A DNA stretch of 44,748 nt from Escherichia phage Schulenburg. Of this stretch, positions 5,608 to 42,507 are shown piece by piece; positions within the stretch are counted from its first letter, which is position 1; each line of letters begins with the position of its first letter. Location of the stretch: sequence record MK931438.1. One strand, given 5' to 3'. Made by a program: the position numbers and the translations under genes. The notes under the pieces were generated by a model, which was given only the letters and a program-made list of their open reading frames with translations, made no database searches and had not been told where the DNA came from.

Positions 5608-5609
5608 TA

Positions 5610-5642
5610 AAAGGCCCCATAATGGGGCCTTAGTTTTATTTA
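5610..5642. terminator. bidirectional intrinsic terminator
   Basis: 8-bp stem aggcccca / tggggcct flanked by A-run upstream and TTTTATTT downstream; lies between convergent genes 5149-5607 (+) and 5636-6157 (-). Confidence 0.6.
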
Positions 5643-6157: not shown

Positions 6158-6184
6158 TTTATGCCTCCTGTTTAAGTTAACTGA

Positions 6185-6213
6185 ATAGTACCCTATTATA
6201 TTGGTGCGCGCAA
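6185..6213 (-). promoter_or_regulatory. type-B promoter/operator (TTGCGC-N17-TACTAT over palindrome AATAGGGTACTATT)
   Basis: Minus-strand TTGCGC, 17-nt spacer, TACTAT; inverted repeat AATAG-N4-CTATT overlaps the -10; about 30 nt upstream of moron start 6157. Confidence 0.45.
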
Positions 6214-6279
6214 ACTATTTATTTACGTATTCCAGTTATTCCACTCAATTGTAAACGTTGGAATAAACTATTCGAATAG

Positions 6280-6308
6280 TTGACTTTTCACTGAAAATAT
6301 GATAAGCT
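6280..6308 (+). promoter_or_regulatory. sigma70-like promoter (TTGACT-17-TAAGCT) of conserved RNA element, copy 1
   Basis: TTGACT, 17-nt spacer, TAAGCT; near-identical promoter and downstream sequence recur at about 37877. Confidence 0.5.
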
Positions 6309-6515
6309 CCACCTGAGCTTGTGAAGTATGAACAAGCGACCGCGGCGCGGGCAGGTAACGGAGCGGGACGTAAGTCCTGAGTGTAGTTACGCTGACGCGT
6401 TCGGAAGGGCCATAGTCTATTGCTTGTGTAAAAAGTAACTGGTTTACTGAGATTACGCCGTTTCTATGTTTAAATGATAAGGACTAGCGCCCCGCTTTAA
6501 GGCGGGGCTTTACTT
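6309..6515 (+). ncRNA. candidate promoter-proximal structured RNA / leader element (copy 1)
   Basis: About 40 nt (cctgagcttgtgaagtatgaacaagcgaccgcggcgcg) identical to copy 2, then about 130 nt diverged but alignable; hairpins gcttgt-N9-acaagc and ggac-GTAA-gtcc; ends with stem gccccgc/gcggggc plus TTTACTT just before the Rz SD. Confidence 0.3.
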
Positions 6516-15248: not shown

Positions 15249-15289
15249 GGTGTAGCTCCTGTTTGAGTTAACATTGTTGGTGTAAGTGA

Positions 15290-15318
15290 ATAGTATCCTA
15301 TTATGTTGGGGTGCGCAA
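15290..15318 (-). promoter_or_regulatory. type-B promoter/operator (TTGCGC-N17-TACTAT over palindrome AATAGGATACTATT)
   Basis: Same architecture as sites near 6185, 38175 and 39101; about 40 nt upstream of the Imm-like gene. Confidence 0.45.
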
Positions 15319-15426
15319 GTAATGTGATAGAATAATTTTGCGCCTAGTGTCGCACACGAAAAGCGGGTGGTTCCCGTCTGGCGCATTTACCATTAACCTG
15401 TAACCTCTTAACCAAAGGATTAAAGA

Positions 15427-25753: not shown

Positions 25754-25757
25754 ATAC

Positions 25758-25790
25758 AAAAGGCCCCGAAAGGGGCCTTTTCTCTACTTT
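25758..25790. terminator. bidirectional intrinsic terminator at structural/replication module boundary
   Basis: aaaaggcccc-gaaa-ggggcctttt hairpin with flanking A and T runs. Confidence 0.65.
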
Positions 25791-28048: not shown

Positions 28049-28348
28049 CTAACTATAATAGTTTGCTATTATGTCGTCAACCTCTTCTTTTGTTCCTACT
28101 ACAAAAACATTTGCGTCACGTTTACGAAGCCGTTTGTGCTCCCGTAACTGATGTTCCTCCGGTTCCGTGTTTTCATCCTTCTTCACCTCTACAAACCATA
28201 TAACCCCTCCCGGAAGGACAACCAACAGGTCAGGCGCTCCGTTTCTACCCTCATACACTATCTTACGAACGAGGCCGCCAAGGGCCTCGAATTGCTCTTT
28301 TGCGTATTTCTGAATCTTGCCTTCCGGAGTCATGAGCGCAAAACCCAT
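28049..28348 (-). CDS. VRR-NUC domain nuclease
   Basis: PD-(D/E)xK-type motif PDLLVV...WFVEVKKDE; 99 aa. Confidence 0.6.
   Translation of the reverse strand: MGFALMTPEGKIQKYAKEQFEALGGLVRKIVYEGRNGAPDLLVVLPGGVIWFVEVKKDENTEPEEHQLREHKRLRKRDANVFVVGTKEEVDDIIANYYS
28052..28080 (-). promoter_or_regulatory. type-A promoter with operator in spacer (TTGACG-17-TATAGT; ATAATAG-N4-CTATTAT)
   Basis: Minus-strand -35/-10 with 17-nt spacer containing a perfect 7-bp inverted repeat; overlaps the 3' end of the VRR-NUC gene. Confidence 0.55.
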
Positions 28349-28685: not shown

Positions 28686-30857
28686 TTACTTAGCATAGCG
28701 CTTCATCTCCGCACCTTCTGCAACCAAAGGGAATCCCTCCGCCCAGTCAGGCAATTCACACATCAACCTCTCAAGCTCTGCAACATTGTATTCAGGCGAA
28801 TCTGGCGTCTCGCAGATAATCTCATCGTGTACATGAAGCACAATCGGGTAGCCGTTTGCTTCAACTTTAAGTAGCGCGTTAGCCAGCAAATCACGGCACA
28901 ACGCCTGCGTACAGTTTTCCACCAGTTTGCCTGAGTACGTGTACTGGAATCCCCACTGACGCGTTAACTGGTTCTCCCCCTGGTACTTGATGCGCACGTT
29001 AGTAGAAACTTTTCCGTCTTCGTCTGTCTCTTTCGACACGCTTAAACCGACGCCAGGGTAGGACATAACACGTCCCGACGGCAACGTCATGCGCAACCAC
29101 CAACCCGCTACCTTGTTGCCGTTGTTGTCTGTTTCTACGTTGCGGGAAAACTTAACTCCGCGCGGGCCAGCGGAGAACTCTTTCCCCGGATTACGTATAG
29201 CTGCCATAGCTGCGTCTTCAATATCGCGCCAGAATTGTACTATCGCCGGGTTGGCTTCCCGGTACATTCGTTTCAGAGCGTCACATGTACGCCAGACTTT
29301 CTTATCAAGGATATATGATGGTCGGTCATCCTTTTCACCCGGACGCGGAGGACGTTTAGCTTCCTGAATACGTGCCCACTCGTAACCACGTGCCGTAGCG
29401 GCCCATATATGGTCAGGGAAAGTTCCAGCTAAAATGTTAGTCATGTCGTTCAAATCAAGCCCTAAGTTTTTAGCAAACGTGACGAAAGCGCCCACACCCC
29501 CCGCGTAGCCCAGTCCGAGAACCATTGCTTTGGCTATTTGTCTTTGGTCTTTTGTTACGTCGTCATAACTAACATTGAACACGGTTGATGCGAGTTTCTT
29601 GTACACATCAACTCCGTTTACAAATACTTCTATTAAATCGTCTTCACCCGCCAGCCAGGCCAGCCCACGACCTTCAACGTTAGAGTAATCGGCAACAACA
29701 AACTTGTGTCCGGCTTCCGGGATGATGCAGCTACGCACCGTCGATGCCGTCAGCTTGGCGACATCAAAGCGGCGATGTGCACGTCCTTTCAGTAGCGCAG
29801 AAATACCTTTATCCAGTTCATCGTCATGATAGTACCCGCGGGCCAGGTTCTGTGGCTGGAAGCCTTTGCCAGCGAATCGTAGCGTACGCTTAGCCCCGCC
29901 GTACTGGATACAACCACGGCGGCGGTCGTCTGACGAGCGGCCTAGCAACAGCGGGTTATATTTCGTTGACGCAGTTGACGCGGCCCCGAGGCGCATTTCG
30001 ATAATCATGCGTGCATCGTCGGGTAAATCCTCGTCAGCCAGCAGGTCGTTAAGAGTAGACTTCTGTGCGTTATGGATGCGATGCGCAGGGGCCAGTTCAC
30101 GCAGAATCGGCAGGAAGTCTTTACCGGTAAGCGAGCCGCCGTATTTGCGCTGGGCTTCTTCCTGCAACTGCGCCTTGTGCTTCTCTACGGCTTCAATCGC
30201 TGCTTCCGCCAGCGCAACATCAACCTTGAACCCACGGTCATTGATTAACTGGTCCAGTTCCAGTACACGGTCTTCGAACTCAGAGTTACCCCACCGCGGC
30301 AGCTTATGGAAGACTTCACGCATCGCGGTGATGTCGCTCACGGCGTACTTGATGAACAGCGCCCACTCGTCCAGGTGCGTTTCGGCGGTGTAGCGGCGGA
30401 TTTTGTAGTTCTTCGGCGTAGGTTTAGAGAAACGCTGAATCAGCGCCTTGCCGCGTTTATCTTTCGCGTTGTCTGCCGATACACCCAGCACTTCGCACAA
30501 CGCATCAAGTGAACCCGGCAGCGCGTGGCGAAACGCCCAAATCATCGTATCAATGGTGTTGCTTACAGGAATATCAAAACCCCAGCAGTGTTTCATGATG
30601 AGCCTGTCGAACATTGAGCCGTTGTGCCACACCATCTTGATACGGCTGTTCGGCTTAACCAGGCGGCGTAAGGCGCGGTGCAAATCCCCCGGCATGTCGC
30701 TGCCGTCGGTGCAATCCCATACCTGCACAGGCTCGTCATCAAAAGCATAGGTACAGATTAGCACTTCGGTAGTTGGATGTTCGGCGTAAGCGTAAGAACC
30801 GACTTTCTTTAAATCGGCCTCGGAGAATGTTTCAAAGTCCAGGTATAAGTAGCTCAT
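28686..30857 (-). CDS. DNA polymerase, family A, with 3'-5' exonuclease domain
   Basis: Exo I motif YLDFETFS; Pol I motif A VVADYSNVEGR, motif B RQIAKAMVLGLGYAGG, motif C HVHDEIICE; ATG at 30857 (AAGGAAAAAG SD) preferred over TTG 30911. Confidence 0.85.
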   Translation of the reverse strand: MSYLYLDFETFSEADLKKVGSYAYAEHPTTEVLICTYAFDDEPVQVWDCTDGSDMPGDLHRALRRLVKPNSRIKMVWHNGSMFDRLIMKHCWGFDIPVSNTIDTMIWAFRHALPGSLDALCEVLGVSADNAKDKRGKALIQRFSKPTPKNYKIRRYTAETHLDEWALFIKYAVSDITAMREVFHKLPRWGNSEFEDRVLELDQLINDRGFKVDVALAEAAIEAVEKHKAQLQEEAQRKYGGSLTGKDFLPILRELAPAHRIHNAQKSTLNDLLADEDLPDDARMIIEMRLGAASTASTKYNPLLLGRSSDDRRRGCIQYGGAKRTLRFAGKGFQPQNLARGYYHDDELDKGISALLKGRAHRRFDVAKLTASTVRSCIIPEAGHKFVVADYSNVEGRGLAWLAGEDDLIEVFVNGVDVYKKLASTVFNVSYDDVTKDQRQIAKAMVLGLGYAGGVGAFVTFAKNLGLDLNDMTNILAGTFPDHIWAATARGYEWARIQEAKRPPRPGEKDDRPSYILDKKVWRTCDALKRMYREANPAIVQFWRDIEDAAMAAIRNPGKEFSAGPRGVKFSRNVETDNNGNKVAGWWLRMTLPSGRVMSYPGVGLSVSKETDEDGKVSTNVRIKYQGENQLTRQWGFQYTYSGKLVENCTQALCRDLLANALLKVEANGYPIVLHVHDEIICETPDSPEYNVAELERLMCELPDWAEGFPLVAEGAEMKRYAK

Positions 30858-31009
30858 TTCTTTTTCCTTAAATCCAGTGCCTTCGTTTCGCTTAATCTTA
30901 TTTTCATACAATCACAGCAAATCCACACATGCTTGTACCCGGCCCGGTACTCATCTGCATACCACGGAAGCGGTTTCATATAGCGATAAACGTGCTTACA
31001 GAAAAACAT
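30854..31009 (-). CDS. small Cys-rich protein (51 aa, putative zinc-binding)
   Basis: Not in ORF track; MFFCKH...WICCDCMK; stop overlaps polymerase ATG (ATGA), suggesting translational coupling. Confidence 0.35.
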   Translation of the reverse strand: MFFCKHVYRYMKPLPWYADEYRAGYKHVWICCDCMKIRLSETKALDLRKKK

Positions 31010-31021
31010 TATTTTCGACCC

Positions 31022-31049
31022 TTAGTAAAAAGGCCCAATGAAGGGCCTT
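31022..31049 (-). terminator. intrinsic terminator-like hairpin (minus strand)
   Basis: aaggccc / gggcctt stem followed on minus strand by TTTTT; downstream of the DUF2815-like gene. Confidence 0.45.
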
Positions 31050-31068: not shown

Positions 31069-31695
31069 TTAGCGGCGACGACGTTCGCGGCGCGGTGCTT
31101 CATCTTCTTCGTCGTCTTCCAGGTCAGTAACACTTGCAGAGACTTTAGAACCGCCAAACGCTTTACCTTCGCCGGCGTATTTAATCGCCAGCAGGTTAAC
31201 GCCGAGGACTTTATATTTCTGGCTGAACCAGATTTCAACGCTTACGTTAGCGACGCAGCCGCTGTAAACCTGTTCACCTTCAATCTGTTCGCCTTCGACG
31301 TTGAAGTCAGGCTCTACCTGAGTTTCACCTTTTTTAGAGGTTACAATCAGAGGTTGTTTCTGTGCCTTCGCTTTGAAGTAGAAGCCTTCCGGGAAGTCTT
31401 CAAAAGGATTATCACGCTCGGCGATGTCCTTAATAGCACATTTATCCATGTGCTTGCCTTCGCCGTAGTTTGACTTCATCCACTTCTCGGCAGCAGCGGC
31501 CCCCAGTGCTTCCTCTACAACCGCATAAACAGTGTCGTACATTTCGTCGATTTGCGCATGGTCAGACGGCAGAATGATAGTCGCGCTGTACTGACCTTTA
31601 GTGATAGAGCCATCGTCGTTTTCACGGTCTTTTTCGCGTTCGAATACGTTAACCCATGCAGTGTTTACTTTACGCAGATTTAATTTCAGTCCCAT
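31069..31695 (-). CDS. ssDNA-binding-like protein (DUF2815-like)
   Basis: 208 aa with acidic Asp/Glu-rich then Arg-rich C-terminal tail; adjacent to DUF2800-like nuclease and polymerase. Confidence 0.5.
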   Translation of the reverse strand: MGLKLNLRKVNTAWVNVFEREKDRENDDGSITKGQYSATIILPSDHAQIDEMYDTVYAVVEEALGAAAAEKWMKSNYGEGKHMDKCAIKDIAERDNPFEDFPEGFYFKAKAQKQPLIVTSKKGETQVEPDFNVEGEQIEGEQVYSGCVANVSVEIWFSQKYKVLGVNLLAIKYAGEGKAFGGSKVSASVTDLEDDEEDEAPRRERRRR

Positions 31696-31753
31696 TTGAT
31701 TTCTCGCTTTTAAGTTTCGTTTACTCCGGGAAGCTGCCCGGCCAGTGATTAGA

Positions 31754-31782
31754 ACTATAATAGCTAACTATTCAGGTGTCAA
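31754..31782 (-). promoter_or_regulatory. type-A promoter with operator in spacer (TTGACA-17-TATAGT; AATAG-N4-CTATT)
   Basis: Perfect -35, 17-nt spacer containing inverted repeat gAATAGTTAGCTATTat; immediately after the DUF2800-like stop. Confidence 0.55.
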
Positions 31783-31786
31783 CACT

Positions 31787-33031
31787 TTATTCTAAATCTT
31801 CTTCACTAACCTGATTCCACTCAGGCCGTTTGTCGTCTGCCGTTGCTACACATGGTGCACCTGGCTTACGTGTGATGAAGTCTTTCAGTTCTTCTTCCGG
31901 TATAACTTTAACCGCTTCGGTCGGCGTCATGAGAACGACTTTGTTCAGCATAGTGCCGTATTTCTCAGCCACCTTATCAGCGTCTTTCCACGCACGATTA
32001 CCCGGACGACCCTCGACCAGCTTGTAACCCGGCACTTTCTTGCCAGAATGCAACGCGGCAGCCATAGCTTTCTCAACCTTGTCGATGTGCTGGCGCAACA
32101 ACGGCAGCTTCTCATACTCGGCGACGAGTTGCTCGGGTGTCAGTTCCAGCGCAAAGTCGTCCTCCAGTTCTTCCACCAGTACAGAATTAACAGTCTTCGT
32201 CCTGGCGACGCACTGTTCCGAGAACCGGCACCACTGGCAACCATCGACTGACGGCTTAAAGTCGGACGCTTTCAGGTTCTTCTTACCACGGAAGTACGCA
32301 TCGAGTGCTAACAGCGCGCGTTTATGTGCGAACTTAGTGAACAGTTCCAGGCCTTCAACCGAGATATCCCACTCCGACGCACCGCCAGCATACGGCTGGA
32401 AGATGACCAGACGAACAGTTGTTATGTTATATCGTCTCTTTAGTCGGCGATAAACACCGAGAGCGTAAAGCATAAGCTGCTTGTTTTCTTTCGCTTCGAC
32501 ACGATGCCGTCCGGTTTTCAGGTCACCAATAATGAGCATGTGCTCGTCGGTGTTCGCCAGTTCCTGCACGGCAACAAGGTCAGCGGTCCCGAACGTCTCA
32601 ACGCCTTCATATCCCGGATGCAGCACCTCTGTAAGATTGACGCGCATTTCCAGCTTGGCGTAAGTCGCTACGTCGATAATCGGTTTGCAGTAGTCGGTGT
32701 ACTTACGCACCTGCTCAATCATGTCCGCCGTAATAAGTACCGCACCTTTCATAAGGCTGATTAACGCCTTAATCTGGCCTTTGCCTTCATCCAGCACGTA
32801 AGCCCCGACTTCACGCTCTAACGGCAACGCAGTGCCTTTGATGTACTGGTTAAGGTGAATCTCAGCTATGGTGTGCATGGCTGTGCCCAATACGGCGGCT
32901 TTACCTGACGTATTTGGAATGTCTTTTTCACATGCCAGTGATGCACTGCACGTCAGCCACTTCTTAGCGCCTGACGGCGACAACAGGGCGTGCACATCGT
33001 TATTGCCGCCGCGTTCTTTTAGTTTCATCAT
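31787..33031 (-). CDS. PD-(D/E)XK Cas4-like nuclease (DUF2800-like)
   Basis: N-terminal HALLSPSGAKKWLTC, nuclease motif TADLVAV...IIGDLKTG, C-terminal Cys cluster CQWCRFSEQC. Confidence 0.7.
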   Translation of the reverse strand: MMKLKERGGNNDVHALLSPSGAKKWLTCSASLACEKDIPNTSGKAAVLGTAMHTIAEIHLNQYIKGTALPLEREVGAYVLDEGKGQIKALISLMKGAVLITADMIEQVRKYTDYCKPIIDVATYAKLEMRVNLTEVLHPGYEGVETFGTADLVAVQELANTDEHMLIIGDLKTGRHRVEAKENKQLMLYALGVYRRLKRRYNITTVRLVIFQPYAGGASEWDISVEGLELFTKFAHKRALLALDAYFRGKKNLKASDFKPSVDGCQWCRFSEQCVARTKTVNSVLVEELEDDFALELTPEQLVAEYEKLPLLRQHIDKVEKAMAAALHSGKKVPGYKLVEGRPGNRAWKDADKVAEKYGTMLNKVVLMTPTEAVKVIPEEELKDFITRKPGAPCVATADDKRPEWNQVSEEDLE

Positions 33032-34290: not shown

Positions 34291-34319
34291 ACTATAATAG
34301 CGAACTATTCACTTGTCAA
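34291..34319 (-). promoter_or_regulatory. type-A promoter with operator in spacer (TTGACA-17-TATAGT; AATAG-N4-CTATT)
   Basis: Minus-strand promoter divergent from the HTH regulator gene; inverted repeat gAATAGTTCGCTATTat in spacer. Confidence 0.55.
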
Positions 34320-34322
34320 TGG

Positions 34323-34352
34323 GCTTTTCTAAAATAATTAATATGGTACTAT
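34323..34352 (+). promoter_or_regulatory. candidate promoter of HTH regulator with half-palindrome AATATGGTACTATT
   Basis: TACTAT -10-like hexamer with weak -35; operator-like motif related to the type-B sites. Confidence 0.35.
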
Positions 34353-34383
34353 TCACGCATCAACTAACTAAGGAGTAACTGAC

Positions 34384-34599
34384 ATGCAACCATCTGAACT
34401 AGGCATCCGTGTAGAACAACGCCGTAAAGAACTCGGCATCTCCCAGCGCCGTCTGGCTGTCCTGACTGGCGTTTCCCAGGGCGCGATTAACCAACTGGCA
34501 CTTGGGGTAACTCAGGACGTCCGCCCGGCGACGCTGTTTAAACTGGCGGAAGTGCTGGAGGTAGACGCCAAGTGGCTGGCGTTAGGTGAAGGGGCTTAA
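34384..34599 (+). CDS. HTH XRE-family transcriptional regulator (Cro/CI-like)
   Basis: 71 aa; HTH region ELGISQRRLAVLTGVSQGAINQLALG; AAGGAG SD; divergent from operator-containing promoters. Confidence 0.7.
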   Translation: MQPSELGIRVEQRRKELGISQRRLAVLTGVSQGAINQLALGVTQDVRPATLFKLAEVLEVDAKWLALGEGA

Positions 34600-34616
34600 T
34601 GCCCCTTTCTTTTTAT
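34589..34616 (+). terminator. intrinsic terminator after HTH regulator gene
   Basis: aaggggc-ttaat-gcccctt hairpin followed by TCTTTTTAT. Confidence 0.55.
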
Positions 34617-37384: not shown

Positions 37385-37591
37385 ATCGCCTGCAAACCAC
37401 GCGTGCGCAGAATCATAGAAACGACATTTACTTAATACCTCGATTGGCATCTTAATAATGCGCGTCGGTTCCGACAAATGATTAGGCTTACATATTTCTA
37501 CATAGAATCCGCTGTCAGTAATTTCTGACGCAAACTTAAACCGGTATTTAACTTTACCGTCTTCAAAGTAACAACCCATACGCCCAATCAT
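37379..37591 (-). CDS. hypothetical protein (70 aa)
   Basis: ORF coupled to upstream AlpA-like gene. Confidence 0.5.
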   Translation of the reverse strand: MIGRMGCYFEDGKVKYRFKFASEITDSGFYVEICKPNHLSEPTRIIKMPIEVLSKCRFYDSAHAWFAGDK

Positions 37592-37770
37592 TTCACGTTC
37601 TCCTTAATCCATGCTTCAACTTTATTACGGTCAAATGTACCCGGTAAACGGCGGCCCATTACTTTAATACAGCAGTCAGGGAATTTACCACTGCGCAGCC
37701 AGTTATTAATTGTCTGACGTGTCACACCGATACGTTCTGCTACTTCATTCTGGGTCATGTAATGTTGCAT
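37588..37770 (-). CDS. AlpA/Xis-like DNA-binding protein
   Basis: MTQNEVAERIGVTRQTINNWLRSGKFP HTH; ATG at 37770 with AGGAGA SD. Confidence 0.5.
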   Translation of the reverse strand: MQHYMTQNEVAERIGVTRQTINNWLRSGKFPDCCIKVMGRRLPGTFDRNKVEAWIKENVK

Positions 37771-37876: not shown

Positions 37877-37905
37877 GTTGACTTTTACTAAGAAATATGG
37901 TAAGC
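37877..37905 (+). promoter_or_regulatory. sigma70-like promoter (TTGACT-17-TAAGCT) of conserved RNA element, copy 2
   Basis: Same hexamers and spacing as the copy at about 6280. Confidence 0.5.
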
Positions 37906-38105
37906 TCAGCCTGAGCTTGTGAAGTATGAACAAGCGACCGCGGCGCGCGGCAGGCGAAACGAGCACGTGTAGCGTGTGGAGTGAGGCTCGCTAGCGCGTT
38001 TGGGAGGCCCAAAGTCTATTGTAATTCCCGCCTAAATATCTAAGTTACTGATTTGCCGTAGGTTATATCCGCAAGCTCACTCACTCTTGGTGCCTTCGGC
38101 ACCAC
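37906..38105 (+). ncRNA. candidate promoter-proximal structured RNA / leader element (copy 2)
   Basis: Shares the about 40-nt core and a further diverged about 130 nt with copy 1; hairpin gcttgt-N9-acaagc; ends near the ggtgcc-ttcg-ggcacc hairpin. Confidence 0.3.
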
Positions 38106-38174: not shown

Positions 38175-38203
38175 CTTGCACACCCCAACATAATAGGATA
38201 CTA
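38175..38203 (+). promoter_or_regulatory. type-B promoter/operator (TTGCAC-N17-TACTAT over palindrome AATAGGATACTATT)
   Basis: About 35 nt upstream of first early gene. Confidence 0.45.
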
Positions 38204-38238
38204 TTCACTTATCGGAACGAGACAGAGGAGTGAGGGTT

Positions 38239-39100: not shown

Positions 39101-39129
39101 TTGCACGATGGGGAAGAATAGGATACTAT
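39101..39129 (+). promoter_or_regulatory. type-B promoter/operator (TTGCAC-N17-TACTAT over palindrome AATAGGATACTATT)
   Basis: About 35 nt upstream of ATG 39161. Confidence 0.45.
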
Positions 39130-39160
39130 TCATTTACACAAACGAGAGGAGAGGCAGAAT

Positions 39161-42457: not shown

Positions 42458-42478
42458 TCTATTTTCTGTAATGACTAG

Positions 42479-42507
42479 TTGACTATTACCTACGACCCTA
42501 TTATATT
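42479..42507 (+). promoter_or_regulatory. sigma70-like promoter (TTGACT-17-TATATT)
   Basis: About 35 nt upstream of ATG 42541. Confidence 0.5.

Follow-up and report, generated by a model that had tools for sequence, protein, structure and literature searches.

In the 44,748-nucleotide stretch of Escherichia phage Schulenburg DNA analysed here (MK931438.1; hereafter, the window), the gene of a single-stranded DNA-binding protein (SSB) is preceded on the minus strand by a near-consensus sigma-70 promoter, P_ssb (31754–31782), whose spacer is filled by a two-fold symmetric sequence, AATAG-N4-CTATT. On balance, and going by sequence, we judge it probable that this strong promoter is gated by a dimer of a Cro-like protein encoded in the same phage, which would bind at AATAG-N4-CTATT; the same operator would serve at seven or more further promoters of early or replication type and, in a weakened form, over the promoter of the regulator itself. 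Sequence analysis shows the promoter, the operator, the enrichment and conservation of both, the membership of the Cro-like protein in the HTH_3 family, and the link between such an operator and such a recognition helix in other genomes. A preliminary description of the site had proposed a promoter occluded by a repressor, and the copies of the operator, the conservation of its arms, the Cro-like gene and the association found in prophages all favor that proposal.

The promoter of the SSB gene and its probable operator

Read along the minus strand (…TAAAGTG TTGACA CCTGAATAGTTAGCTAT TATAGT TCTAATCACTGG…), the -35 hexamer TTGACA (31777–31782) and the -10 hexamer TATAGT (31754–31759) are separated by a spacer of 17 nt, CCTGAATAGTTAGCTAT, just as had been described, with the 16–18 bp between hexamers and the downstream gene on the same strand that characterize sigma-70 promoters. 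Eleven of the twelve consensus positions are matched, a score that in the 44.7-kb window, both strands considered, is reached only by the promoters at 31782 and 34319. P_ssb is, with high probability, a real promoter; from promoter geometry, transcription on the minus strand is predicted to start at 31747, 7 nt beyond the -10 box, and 58 nt separate the promoter from the ATG of the SSB gene.

The inverted repeat that had been placed in the spacer is the 14-bp sequence AATAGTTAGCTATT (31759–31772), that is, AATAG-TTAG-CTATT, with two 5-bp arms around a 4-bp center, which extends over spacer positions 5–17 and has its last T in common with the -10 box, of which it is the first base. As a hairpin in RNA or DNA, the palindrome was considered and rejected: its fold amounts to -2.5 kcal/mol (z -0.49), and the arms are invariant and never co-vary. 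A negligible hairpin, together with a conserved sequence of two-fold symmetry, therefore points to sequence recognition by a dimeric DNA-binding protein. An Rfam scan of the whole window gave no family at the gathering score. The palindrome is, very probably, a protein operator.

Copies of the operator and their two registers

In a census of all 5-N(0–8)-5 palindromes, carried out so as not to favor any of them, AATAG-N4-CTATT ranks first in the window with seven exact copies, followed by palindromes with three copies that are GC-rich terminator stems. All seven exact copies are at promoters. When up to one mismatch is allowed, AATAGNNNNCTATT is matched 11 times, against 1.08 expected, and the composite pattern of -35 box, operator and -10 box seen at P_ssb, called type A, is matched three times, against 0.16 expected, a number that none of 100 shuffled windows reached. 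An unbiased repeat search returned these same three promoters as its first family (D1), with copies that align over ~44 nt.

In the type-A promoters, 4 nt separate the -35 box from the site, whose last base is also the first of TATAGT, and the genes they drive, on the minus strand, are those of replication and recombination. The two that accompany P_ssb had been noted near 28052 and 34291, and they are present at exactly 28052–28080 (TTGACG-acat-AATAGCAAACTATT-ATAGT, at the head of the operon of an SNF2-type helicase) and 34291–34319 (TTGACA-agtg-AATAGTTCGCTATT-ATAGT, which faces away from the Cro-like gene and serves small genes, DUF551 and the DUF2800 exonuclease). The helicase-operon promoter is situated within the last ten or so codons of the ORF 28049–28348, annotated in Escherichia phage Snoke as an endonuclease, and this short segment is therefore under coding as well as regulatory constraint.

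Type A is a real design, as had been described, but the operator occurs in at least one other register. Four copies are of type B (6184, 15289, 38192, and 39117), with TTGCGC or TTGCAC as the -35 box, a site that begins 10 nt after it, and a right arm that supplies the -10 box, TACTAT. Two of these promoters face left, one at 6185–6213 (TTGCGC-17-TACTAT), whose operator, 6184–6197, overlaps the -10 box, and another at 15290–15318, with its operator at 15289–15302, ahead of an operon for superinfection immunity and a phosphoesterase; the two on the plus strand, at 38176–38204 (operator 38192–38205) and 39101–39129 (operator 39117–39130), precede, respectively, small genes annotated without function, and small genes with an HslV-like protease. 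The operator at 15289–15302 is placed between back-to-back promoters (15289–15335), type B on the minus strand and, on the plus strand, the TTGGGG-16-TGaTAGAAT of the tail operon, whose -35 box begins 3 nt from the palindrome; a single dimer at this site could affect transcription in both directions.

With respect to the contacts of the polymerase, the two registers are offset by 6 bp, and this therefore fits a protein that merely overlaps the polymerase footprint, and not an element recognized by the polymerase or a factor that docks in a fixed position. The same property bears on a different explanation, that the palindrome is a site of loading or activation, either an antiterminator element of the Q/AlpA type or the site of an activator of the MerR type. 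The binding elements of lambda Q and of Pseudomonas aeruginosa AlpA also sit in promoter spacers, between -35 and -10, the window encodes a small HTH_17 protein of the clan to which AlpA, the excisionases and the N-terminal domains of MerR belong, and a partial terminator follows the SSB gene. However, the Q and AlpA elements are non-palindromic, are held in a fixed register and need a promoter-proximal pause, whereas here the site is a symmetric palindrome of the kind bound by dimers, its register with respect to the -10 box varies (the distance from the -35 box is 4 nt in type A and 10 nt in type B) in a way ill-suited to docking of fixed geometry, and no pause-inducing -10-like element is shared downstream of the three type-A starts. 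As for MerR, whose promoters have spacers of 19–20 bp, the optimal 17 bp of P_ssb and its near-consensus hexamers leave no need for a realignment of that kind. Loading or activation at the palindrome is, thus, highly improbable.

Conservation across relatives

The window is a Kagunavirus, subfamily Guernseyvirinae, and a virulent siphovirus, as is the 44-kb Snoke (MK931441), with which it shares 99.8% identity over 30.5–33.5 kb; relatives number in the hundreds, the Jerseyviruses of Salmonella among them. The relatives compared were 36 from IMG/VR, fetched via the SSB protein, together with several genomes from GenBank; most of those examined are closely akin, and part of the invariance is phylogenetic inertia.

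Among 28 distinct orthologues of P_ssb, the variants per column are 0, 2, 0, 0, 1 in the left arm, 3, 7, 4, 6 in the center and 0, 0, 0, 1, 0 in the right arm, and among 27 orthologues of the helicase promoter they are 0, 2, 0, 0, 0, then 0, 6, 8, 3, and then 0, 0, 0, 0, 0. In terms of cells, 4 of 280 vary in the arms of P_ssb and 2 of 270 in those of the helicase promoter, against 20 of 112 and 17 of 108 in the respective centers. The -35 box of P_ssb is invariant in its 28 orthologues, save for one TTGACT; the -10 box in relatives is TATAGT or TATATT, and in a few of them the spacer is of 18 bp. In other words, the arms are constrained like the -35 and -10 boxes, while the center and the 4 nt beside the -35 box drift. 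In the Jerseyvirus Ent2, whose SSB protein is 78% identical, the promoter reads TTGACA-agtt-AATAGTACTCTATT-ATATT, with the arms kept and both flanks and center changed, and in phiEc3, a divergent Kagunavirus (SSB 62% identical), all seven sites are kept.

These comparisons weigh on a reading without any operator, in which the three type-A promoters would be a duplicated cassette whose spacer has been kept for its strength or through recent descent. The alignment of the three copies over ~44 nt is what such a duplication would leave, and the kinship of the relatives implies that some of the invariance is inertia. However, the alignments show free variation in the central 4 bp and in the 4 nt beside the -35 box, and none of this kind in the arms, and the palindrome recurs in the type-B promoters with a different -35 box, spacer and -10 box, is kept where the surrounding DNA has diverged, and recurs in the immunity regions of unrelated prophages, so that a mere cassette is very improbable.

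Upstream of P_ssb, the genes differ among the relatives, with at least four unrelated sequences in the comparison (window 31783–31800 and loci L004–L039), and it is precisely from the -35 hexamer onward that they are homologous again; the promoter and operator appear to form the boundary of a recombination module. Outside this group, in Serratia phage Scapp, which has the same replication module and a Cro-like gene and is GC-rich, no comparable palindrome was found. When IMG/VR was scanned with the type-A pattern, several matches per contig were found, among the matches listed, only in contigs of 35–45 kb; several of these multi-match contigs are relatives within Guernseyvirinae, and the scattered single matches are consistent with chance.

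The protein that would read the operator

The early regions encode just two recognizable DNA-binding proteins, of the families HTH_3 and HTH_17. The former is the Cro-like protein, of 71 amino acids (34384–34599, plus strand; HTH_3, E 2.3e-12), which has the recognition helix SQGAINQL, is encoded by a monocistronic gene with a terminator at 34588–34608, and is annotated in relatives as 'Cro', 'DicA' or 'repressor'. Among proteins of solved structure, it is closest to 434 Cro (E 8e-6) and to the 434 repressor. Beside the gene, in a divergent promoter region, are two operators, at 34296 and 34340 and 44 bp apart, and operator copies so placed are a classical autoregulatory layout. The second of these, AATATGGTACTATT (34340–34353), has one mismatch and overlaps the -10 box, TACTAT, of the weak promoter of the gene (34324–34353, plus strand), a promoter that is conserved in phiEc3.

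The operators of phage 434 are of 14 bp, and the protein contacts their outer 5+5 bp and leaves the inner 4 bp untouched (PMC1636474). The window shares with OR1–3 and OL1–3 of that phage this 5+4+5 geometry in a two-fold site, an HTH_3 relative and the overlap with core promoter elements; as in operators of the 434 and P22 type generally, which measure some 14–18 bp, the 14-bp site is symmetric, its center varies, it is found in several promoters, including that of the regulator, and a gene of the HTH_3 family is adjacent. The bases and residues are different, as the arms of 434 are ACAA(N), against AATAG here, and its helix QQSIQ, against QGAINQ, and so is the organization, since 434 is temperate and has tripartite operator arrays for which CI and Cro compete, whereas the window, of a virulent phage, has a lone protein of Cro size and single operators at at least eight promoters.

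An independent association comes from prophages. IMG/VR was scanned for pairs of AATAG-N4-CTATT sites 10–40 nt apart, which gave 37 loci, most of them of 17–39% GC and seven of ~48% GC; at these loci, chance or unrelated matches are to be expected. The only GC-rich loci, L165, L180, L184, and L197 (64–67% GC), at which chance matches to so AT-rich a pattern are negligible, are all prophage immunity regions. In the four of them the palindromes are located between a divergent cI (HTH_3 + Peptidase_S24) and a YdaS-type cro, and in L165, L180, and L184 there is a second pair of palindromes 1.1–1.6 kb away, in the manner of OL; by their position, these palindromes are the putative operators of the cI/cro region. 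The recognition helix of the prophage CI proteins is TQGAISQI or TQGAIWQI, to be compared with SQGAINQL in the window, at an overall identity of just 38–40%. L180 corresponds to a prophage of Rhizorhabdus histidinilytica (strain UM2, NZ_FUYM01000003), and other sphingomonad CI homologues share the C-terminal domain and have a different HTH and other palindromes; the AATAG palindrome was not found with them.

The window and these prophages are thus alike in AATAG-N4-CTATT, in its variable center, in a near-identical HTH_3 helix and in the position of the operators over the -35/-10 region. They differ in that the prophages are temperate, belong to hosts of another bacterial class (alphaproteobacterial), have a CI with the Peptidase_S24 autocleavage domain paired with a YdaS-type Cro, and group their operators in OR- and OL-like pairs, while those of the window are dispersed through the genome. 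The match of helix and operator offers correlative support for the sequence-specific binding, and the repression, that we infer for the Cro-like protein.

The seven loci of ~48% GC (L162, L164, L166, L170, L181, L186, and L193) belong to an unrelated group of phages, and there the AATAG/CTATT arms are inside a fixed 17-mer, ACTAATAGATAACTATT, of invariant center, with 2–7 copies per locus. A simple pattern search saw no HTH of the QGAIxQ type near them, and they may belong to a different regulator or to an iteron system.

The Cro-like HTH_3 protein is quite likely the reader of the operator, because of its homology with the 434 proteins and the geometry shared with their sites, because operators flank its gene, because Salmonella phage PSDA-2, a distant relative, keeps the Cro-like gene and a degenerate motif with no detectable homologue of HTH_17, and because of the independent association in prophages. 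Several observations weigh against it. The orthologue found in the Jerseyviruses has 49% identity with the Cro-like protein and a clearly different helix, SQSLITHL, yet the AATAG/CTATT arms are unchanged, and therefore either helix and operator do not correspond in a one-to-one code or the site is read by another protein; HTH_17, at 84% identity, is better conserved across the two genera; the operator at the promoter of the regulator itself is imperfect; and the degenerate motif at the promoters of PSDA-2, AWTAK-N4-STATT, was defined after the sites had been seen, so that its statistics are biased. The Cro-like protein of PSDA-2 is also changed. Moreover, in the one RNA-seq study of a Kagunavirus (K1B4) that was found, whose gene-level timing is too coarse to reveal a shut-off, an HTH gene falls in the early class, a 'specific DNA binding' gene in the middle class and the polymerase in the late class, and no shut-off of the replication genes is seen (PMC12645636).

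All this leads to the main alternative for the binder, which keeps the occlusion of the spacer as such and assigns it to the HTH_17 protein, of 60 amino acids (37588–37770, minus strand; excisionase/MerR clan), or to another small phage protein. Besides the 84% identity between two genera that share the palindrome, against the 49% and changed helix of the Cro-like protein, HTH_17 would draw support from the place of an HTH gene among the earliest-peaking genes of K1B4 (PMC12645636). However, in the Kagunavirus lineages L013 and L033 its helix is altered (STMTLNRW) and coexists with an unchanged palindrome, no operator copy stands beside its gene, no homologue was detectable in PSDA-2, where the motif persists in degenerate form, and the independent association in prophages is with HTH_3 proteins. 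As a rule, moreover, winged helices of the excisionase type recognize single sites or direct repeats rather than palindromes of 14 bp. Neither of the two candidates co-varies cleanly with the operator inside the subfamily, and recognition by HTH_17 or another small protein is unlikely.

A host factor, of Escherichia coli or Salmonella, has also to be considered, either TrpR-like (operator ACTAGTTAACTAGT) or OxyR-like (ATAG/CTAT), as the motif resembles the trp operator and the ATAG elements of OxyR, and is common to phages of two host genera whose own candidate regulators have diverged. However, the TrpR operator has symmetric CTAG cores (ACTAG-TTAA-CTAGT), and in all seven copies here there is ATAG/CTAT instead, with a free center; the OxyR site is made of ATAG-N7-CTAT units with a phasing of 10 bp, and here the spacing is ATAG-N4-CTAT. 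In the alphaproteobacterial prophages, the same palindrome is used as the cI/cro operator and a phage-encoded HTH_3 protein is its obvious reader, and it is hard to rationalize why eight early promoters should be tied to the status of tryptophan or peroxide. A host reader is, for these reasons, most improbable. A comparison with TrpR, OxyR, NrdR, ArgR, LexA, Lrp, and FNR found none that fits both the sequence of the arms and their spacing.

With regard to the surroundings of the Cro-like gene, the primase-helicase gene is directly downstream of it and on the same strand in PSDA-2 (locus L003, 4119–7011; there the primase-helicase is recorded in four ORFs) and in Scapp, and is convergent with it in Kagunavirus and Jerseyvirus. 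A search for homologues with the Cro-like protein gave only contigs of Kagunavirus size, and no distant genomic contexts.

A proposed model for repression by the Cro-like protein

With the Cro-like protein as the most likely reader, a model can be proposed in which the start of transcription, the binding event, its outcome and its timing are all inferred. The host sigma-70 polymerase would fire the near-consensus promoters of types A and B right after infection, and transcription from P_ssb, starting near 31747 on the minus strand, would boost the gp2.5-like SSB and, by read-through past a weak terminator, would reach the DNA polymerase gene. Meanwhile the Cro-like protein would be made from its own weak promoter, with its weak operator, and would then accumulate. 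Its dimers would settle on the 14-bp operator, with one recognition helix for each 5-bp arm and the central 4 bp uncontacted; at type-A promoters they would lie in the spacer and at type-B promoters over the -10 box, and in both positions they would exclude the RNA polymerase. Early and replication transcription would in this way be limited or shut off, and the result would be a negative feedback, of genome-wide reach, on early and middle genes.

Exclusion of the polymerase from a sigma-70 promoter by a repressor is a classical mechanism. In P22 Pant/Arc and in engineered promoters of the PLlacO-1/PLtetO-1 type, the operator separates the -35 and -10 hexamers of a strong sigma-70 promoter, and a repressor bound there keeps RNA polymerase off; the likeness of these to P_ssb is one of mechanism only, as Arc is a ribbon-helix-helix tetramer on a site of 21 bp, and LacI and TetR have unrelated folds and longer operators. 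What would be new is the use of a lone Cro regulator of the 434 type on dispersed single operators in a virulent phage, and the sharing of operator and helix with temperate prophages of alphaproteobacteria. In the searchable literature, no account was found of this operator, of any Guernseyvirinae promoter or of the transcriptional program of Guernseyvirinae.

The SSB transcript and its genetic setting

The first gene downstream of P_ssb is that of the SSB (31069–31695, minus strand), a protein of the family PF10991, formerly DUF2815 (Pfam E 1.3e-14), similar to those of Enc34 and T7 gp2.5 and annotated in Snoke as 'ssDNA binding protein'. It is followed by a small ORF and by the gene of a family-A DNA polymerase (28686–30911, minus strand). 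Upstream is the gene of a DUF2800/PD-(D/E)XK exonuclease (31787–33031), and P_ssb begins 4 nt past its stop codon; P_ssb is therefore an internal booster within a longer leftward replication transcription unit. Thus the operon of SSB and polymerase that had been described stands as regards the order of its genes, and has to be qualified in two respects, namely, that the promoter is internal to a longer unit and that a terminator-like hairpin intervenes after SSB.

This hairpin (AAGGCCC-ttcatt-GGGCCTT followed by TTTA; 31025–31049, minus strand; -14 kcal/mol, z -2.2) is directly 3′ of the SSB stop codon and ahead of the polymerase gene, and consequently much of the P_ssb transcript may be monocistronic; most of the product would probably be SSB mRNA, and some transcription would continue into the polymerase gene. 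The annotation of Scapp has a terminator at the corresponding place, and within the window a similar GC-rich hairpin motif appears again at 5608–5640 and 25757–25789 (repeat family D4). At the other end of the message, the 5′ untranslated region of the SSB mRNA has a predicted stem-loop, CCGGG-N6-CCCGG (31726–31741, minus strand), whose folding energy alone is unremarkable (z +0.49); in 33 distinct relatives that include the distant PSDA-2, its stem is invariant and its loop, of 5–7 nt, varies. It may be a 5′ hairpin that stabilizes the mRNA or an autoregulatory site for SSB.

Half-sites at late-type promoters and a candidate structured element

At two promoters of late type, half of the operator is fused to the -35 box, as AATAGTTGACT at 6275 (6265–6288) and as ACTAGTTGACT at 42474 (42474–42487), and both half-sites are conserved in the Jerseyviruses LSPA1 and Ent2. 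At 6265–6280 there is a perfect palindrome of 16 bp, AACTATTCGAATAGTT, with half-sites tail to tail. The same regulator could act positively at late promoters. Taken further, a protein of Cro size would be a timer of the whole genome, which shuts at least eight early and replication promoters and activates the late ones via half-sites, with affinities graded by register and by the bases of the center, that is, a switch from early to late made of one protein taken from a temperate cI/cro module with an operator code in common with alphaproteobacterial prophages; this broader proposal is speculative and unlikely.

In addition, there are in the window two copies of an element of ~170 nt (6279–6450 and 37877–38045, both on the plus strand), which lead into the late structural operon and precede the type-B promoter at 38176. 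Both copies consist of a promoter, TTGACT-17-TAAGCT, whose -10 is extended by TGn, and a conserved transcribed region of ~105 nt after it. In nine distinct copies, from the window and relatives, RNAalifold predicts 31 pairs, eight of them with compensatory double changes, and no Rfam match was found for the element. It is a candidate for a structured leader or a small RNA, and might be an antitermination RNA similar to put.

Implications for Guernseyvirinae

In the annotations of Snoke, LSPA1, and phiEc3 there is neither an integrase nor a repressor of CI length, and for this reason the label 'repressor' given to the Cro-like gene is no evidence of lysogeny; its product is more likely a regulator that shuts off transcription within the lytic cycle. 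The Guernseyvirinae (Kagunavirus and Jerseyvirus) are among the phages of E. coli and Salmonella most often isolated for therapy and biocontrol, and they are a chassis for engineering. The operator, the candidate repressor and the map of eight promoters would provide a compact repressor/operator pair for synthetic biology and, for the biology of the subfamily, a testable model of how the timing of genes may be governed in a virulent phage without an RNA polymerase of its own.

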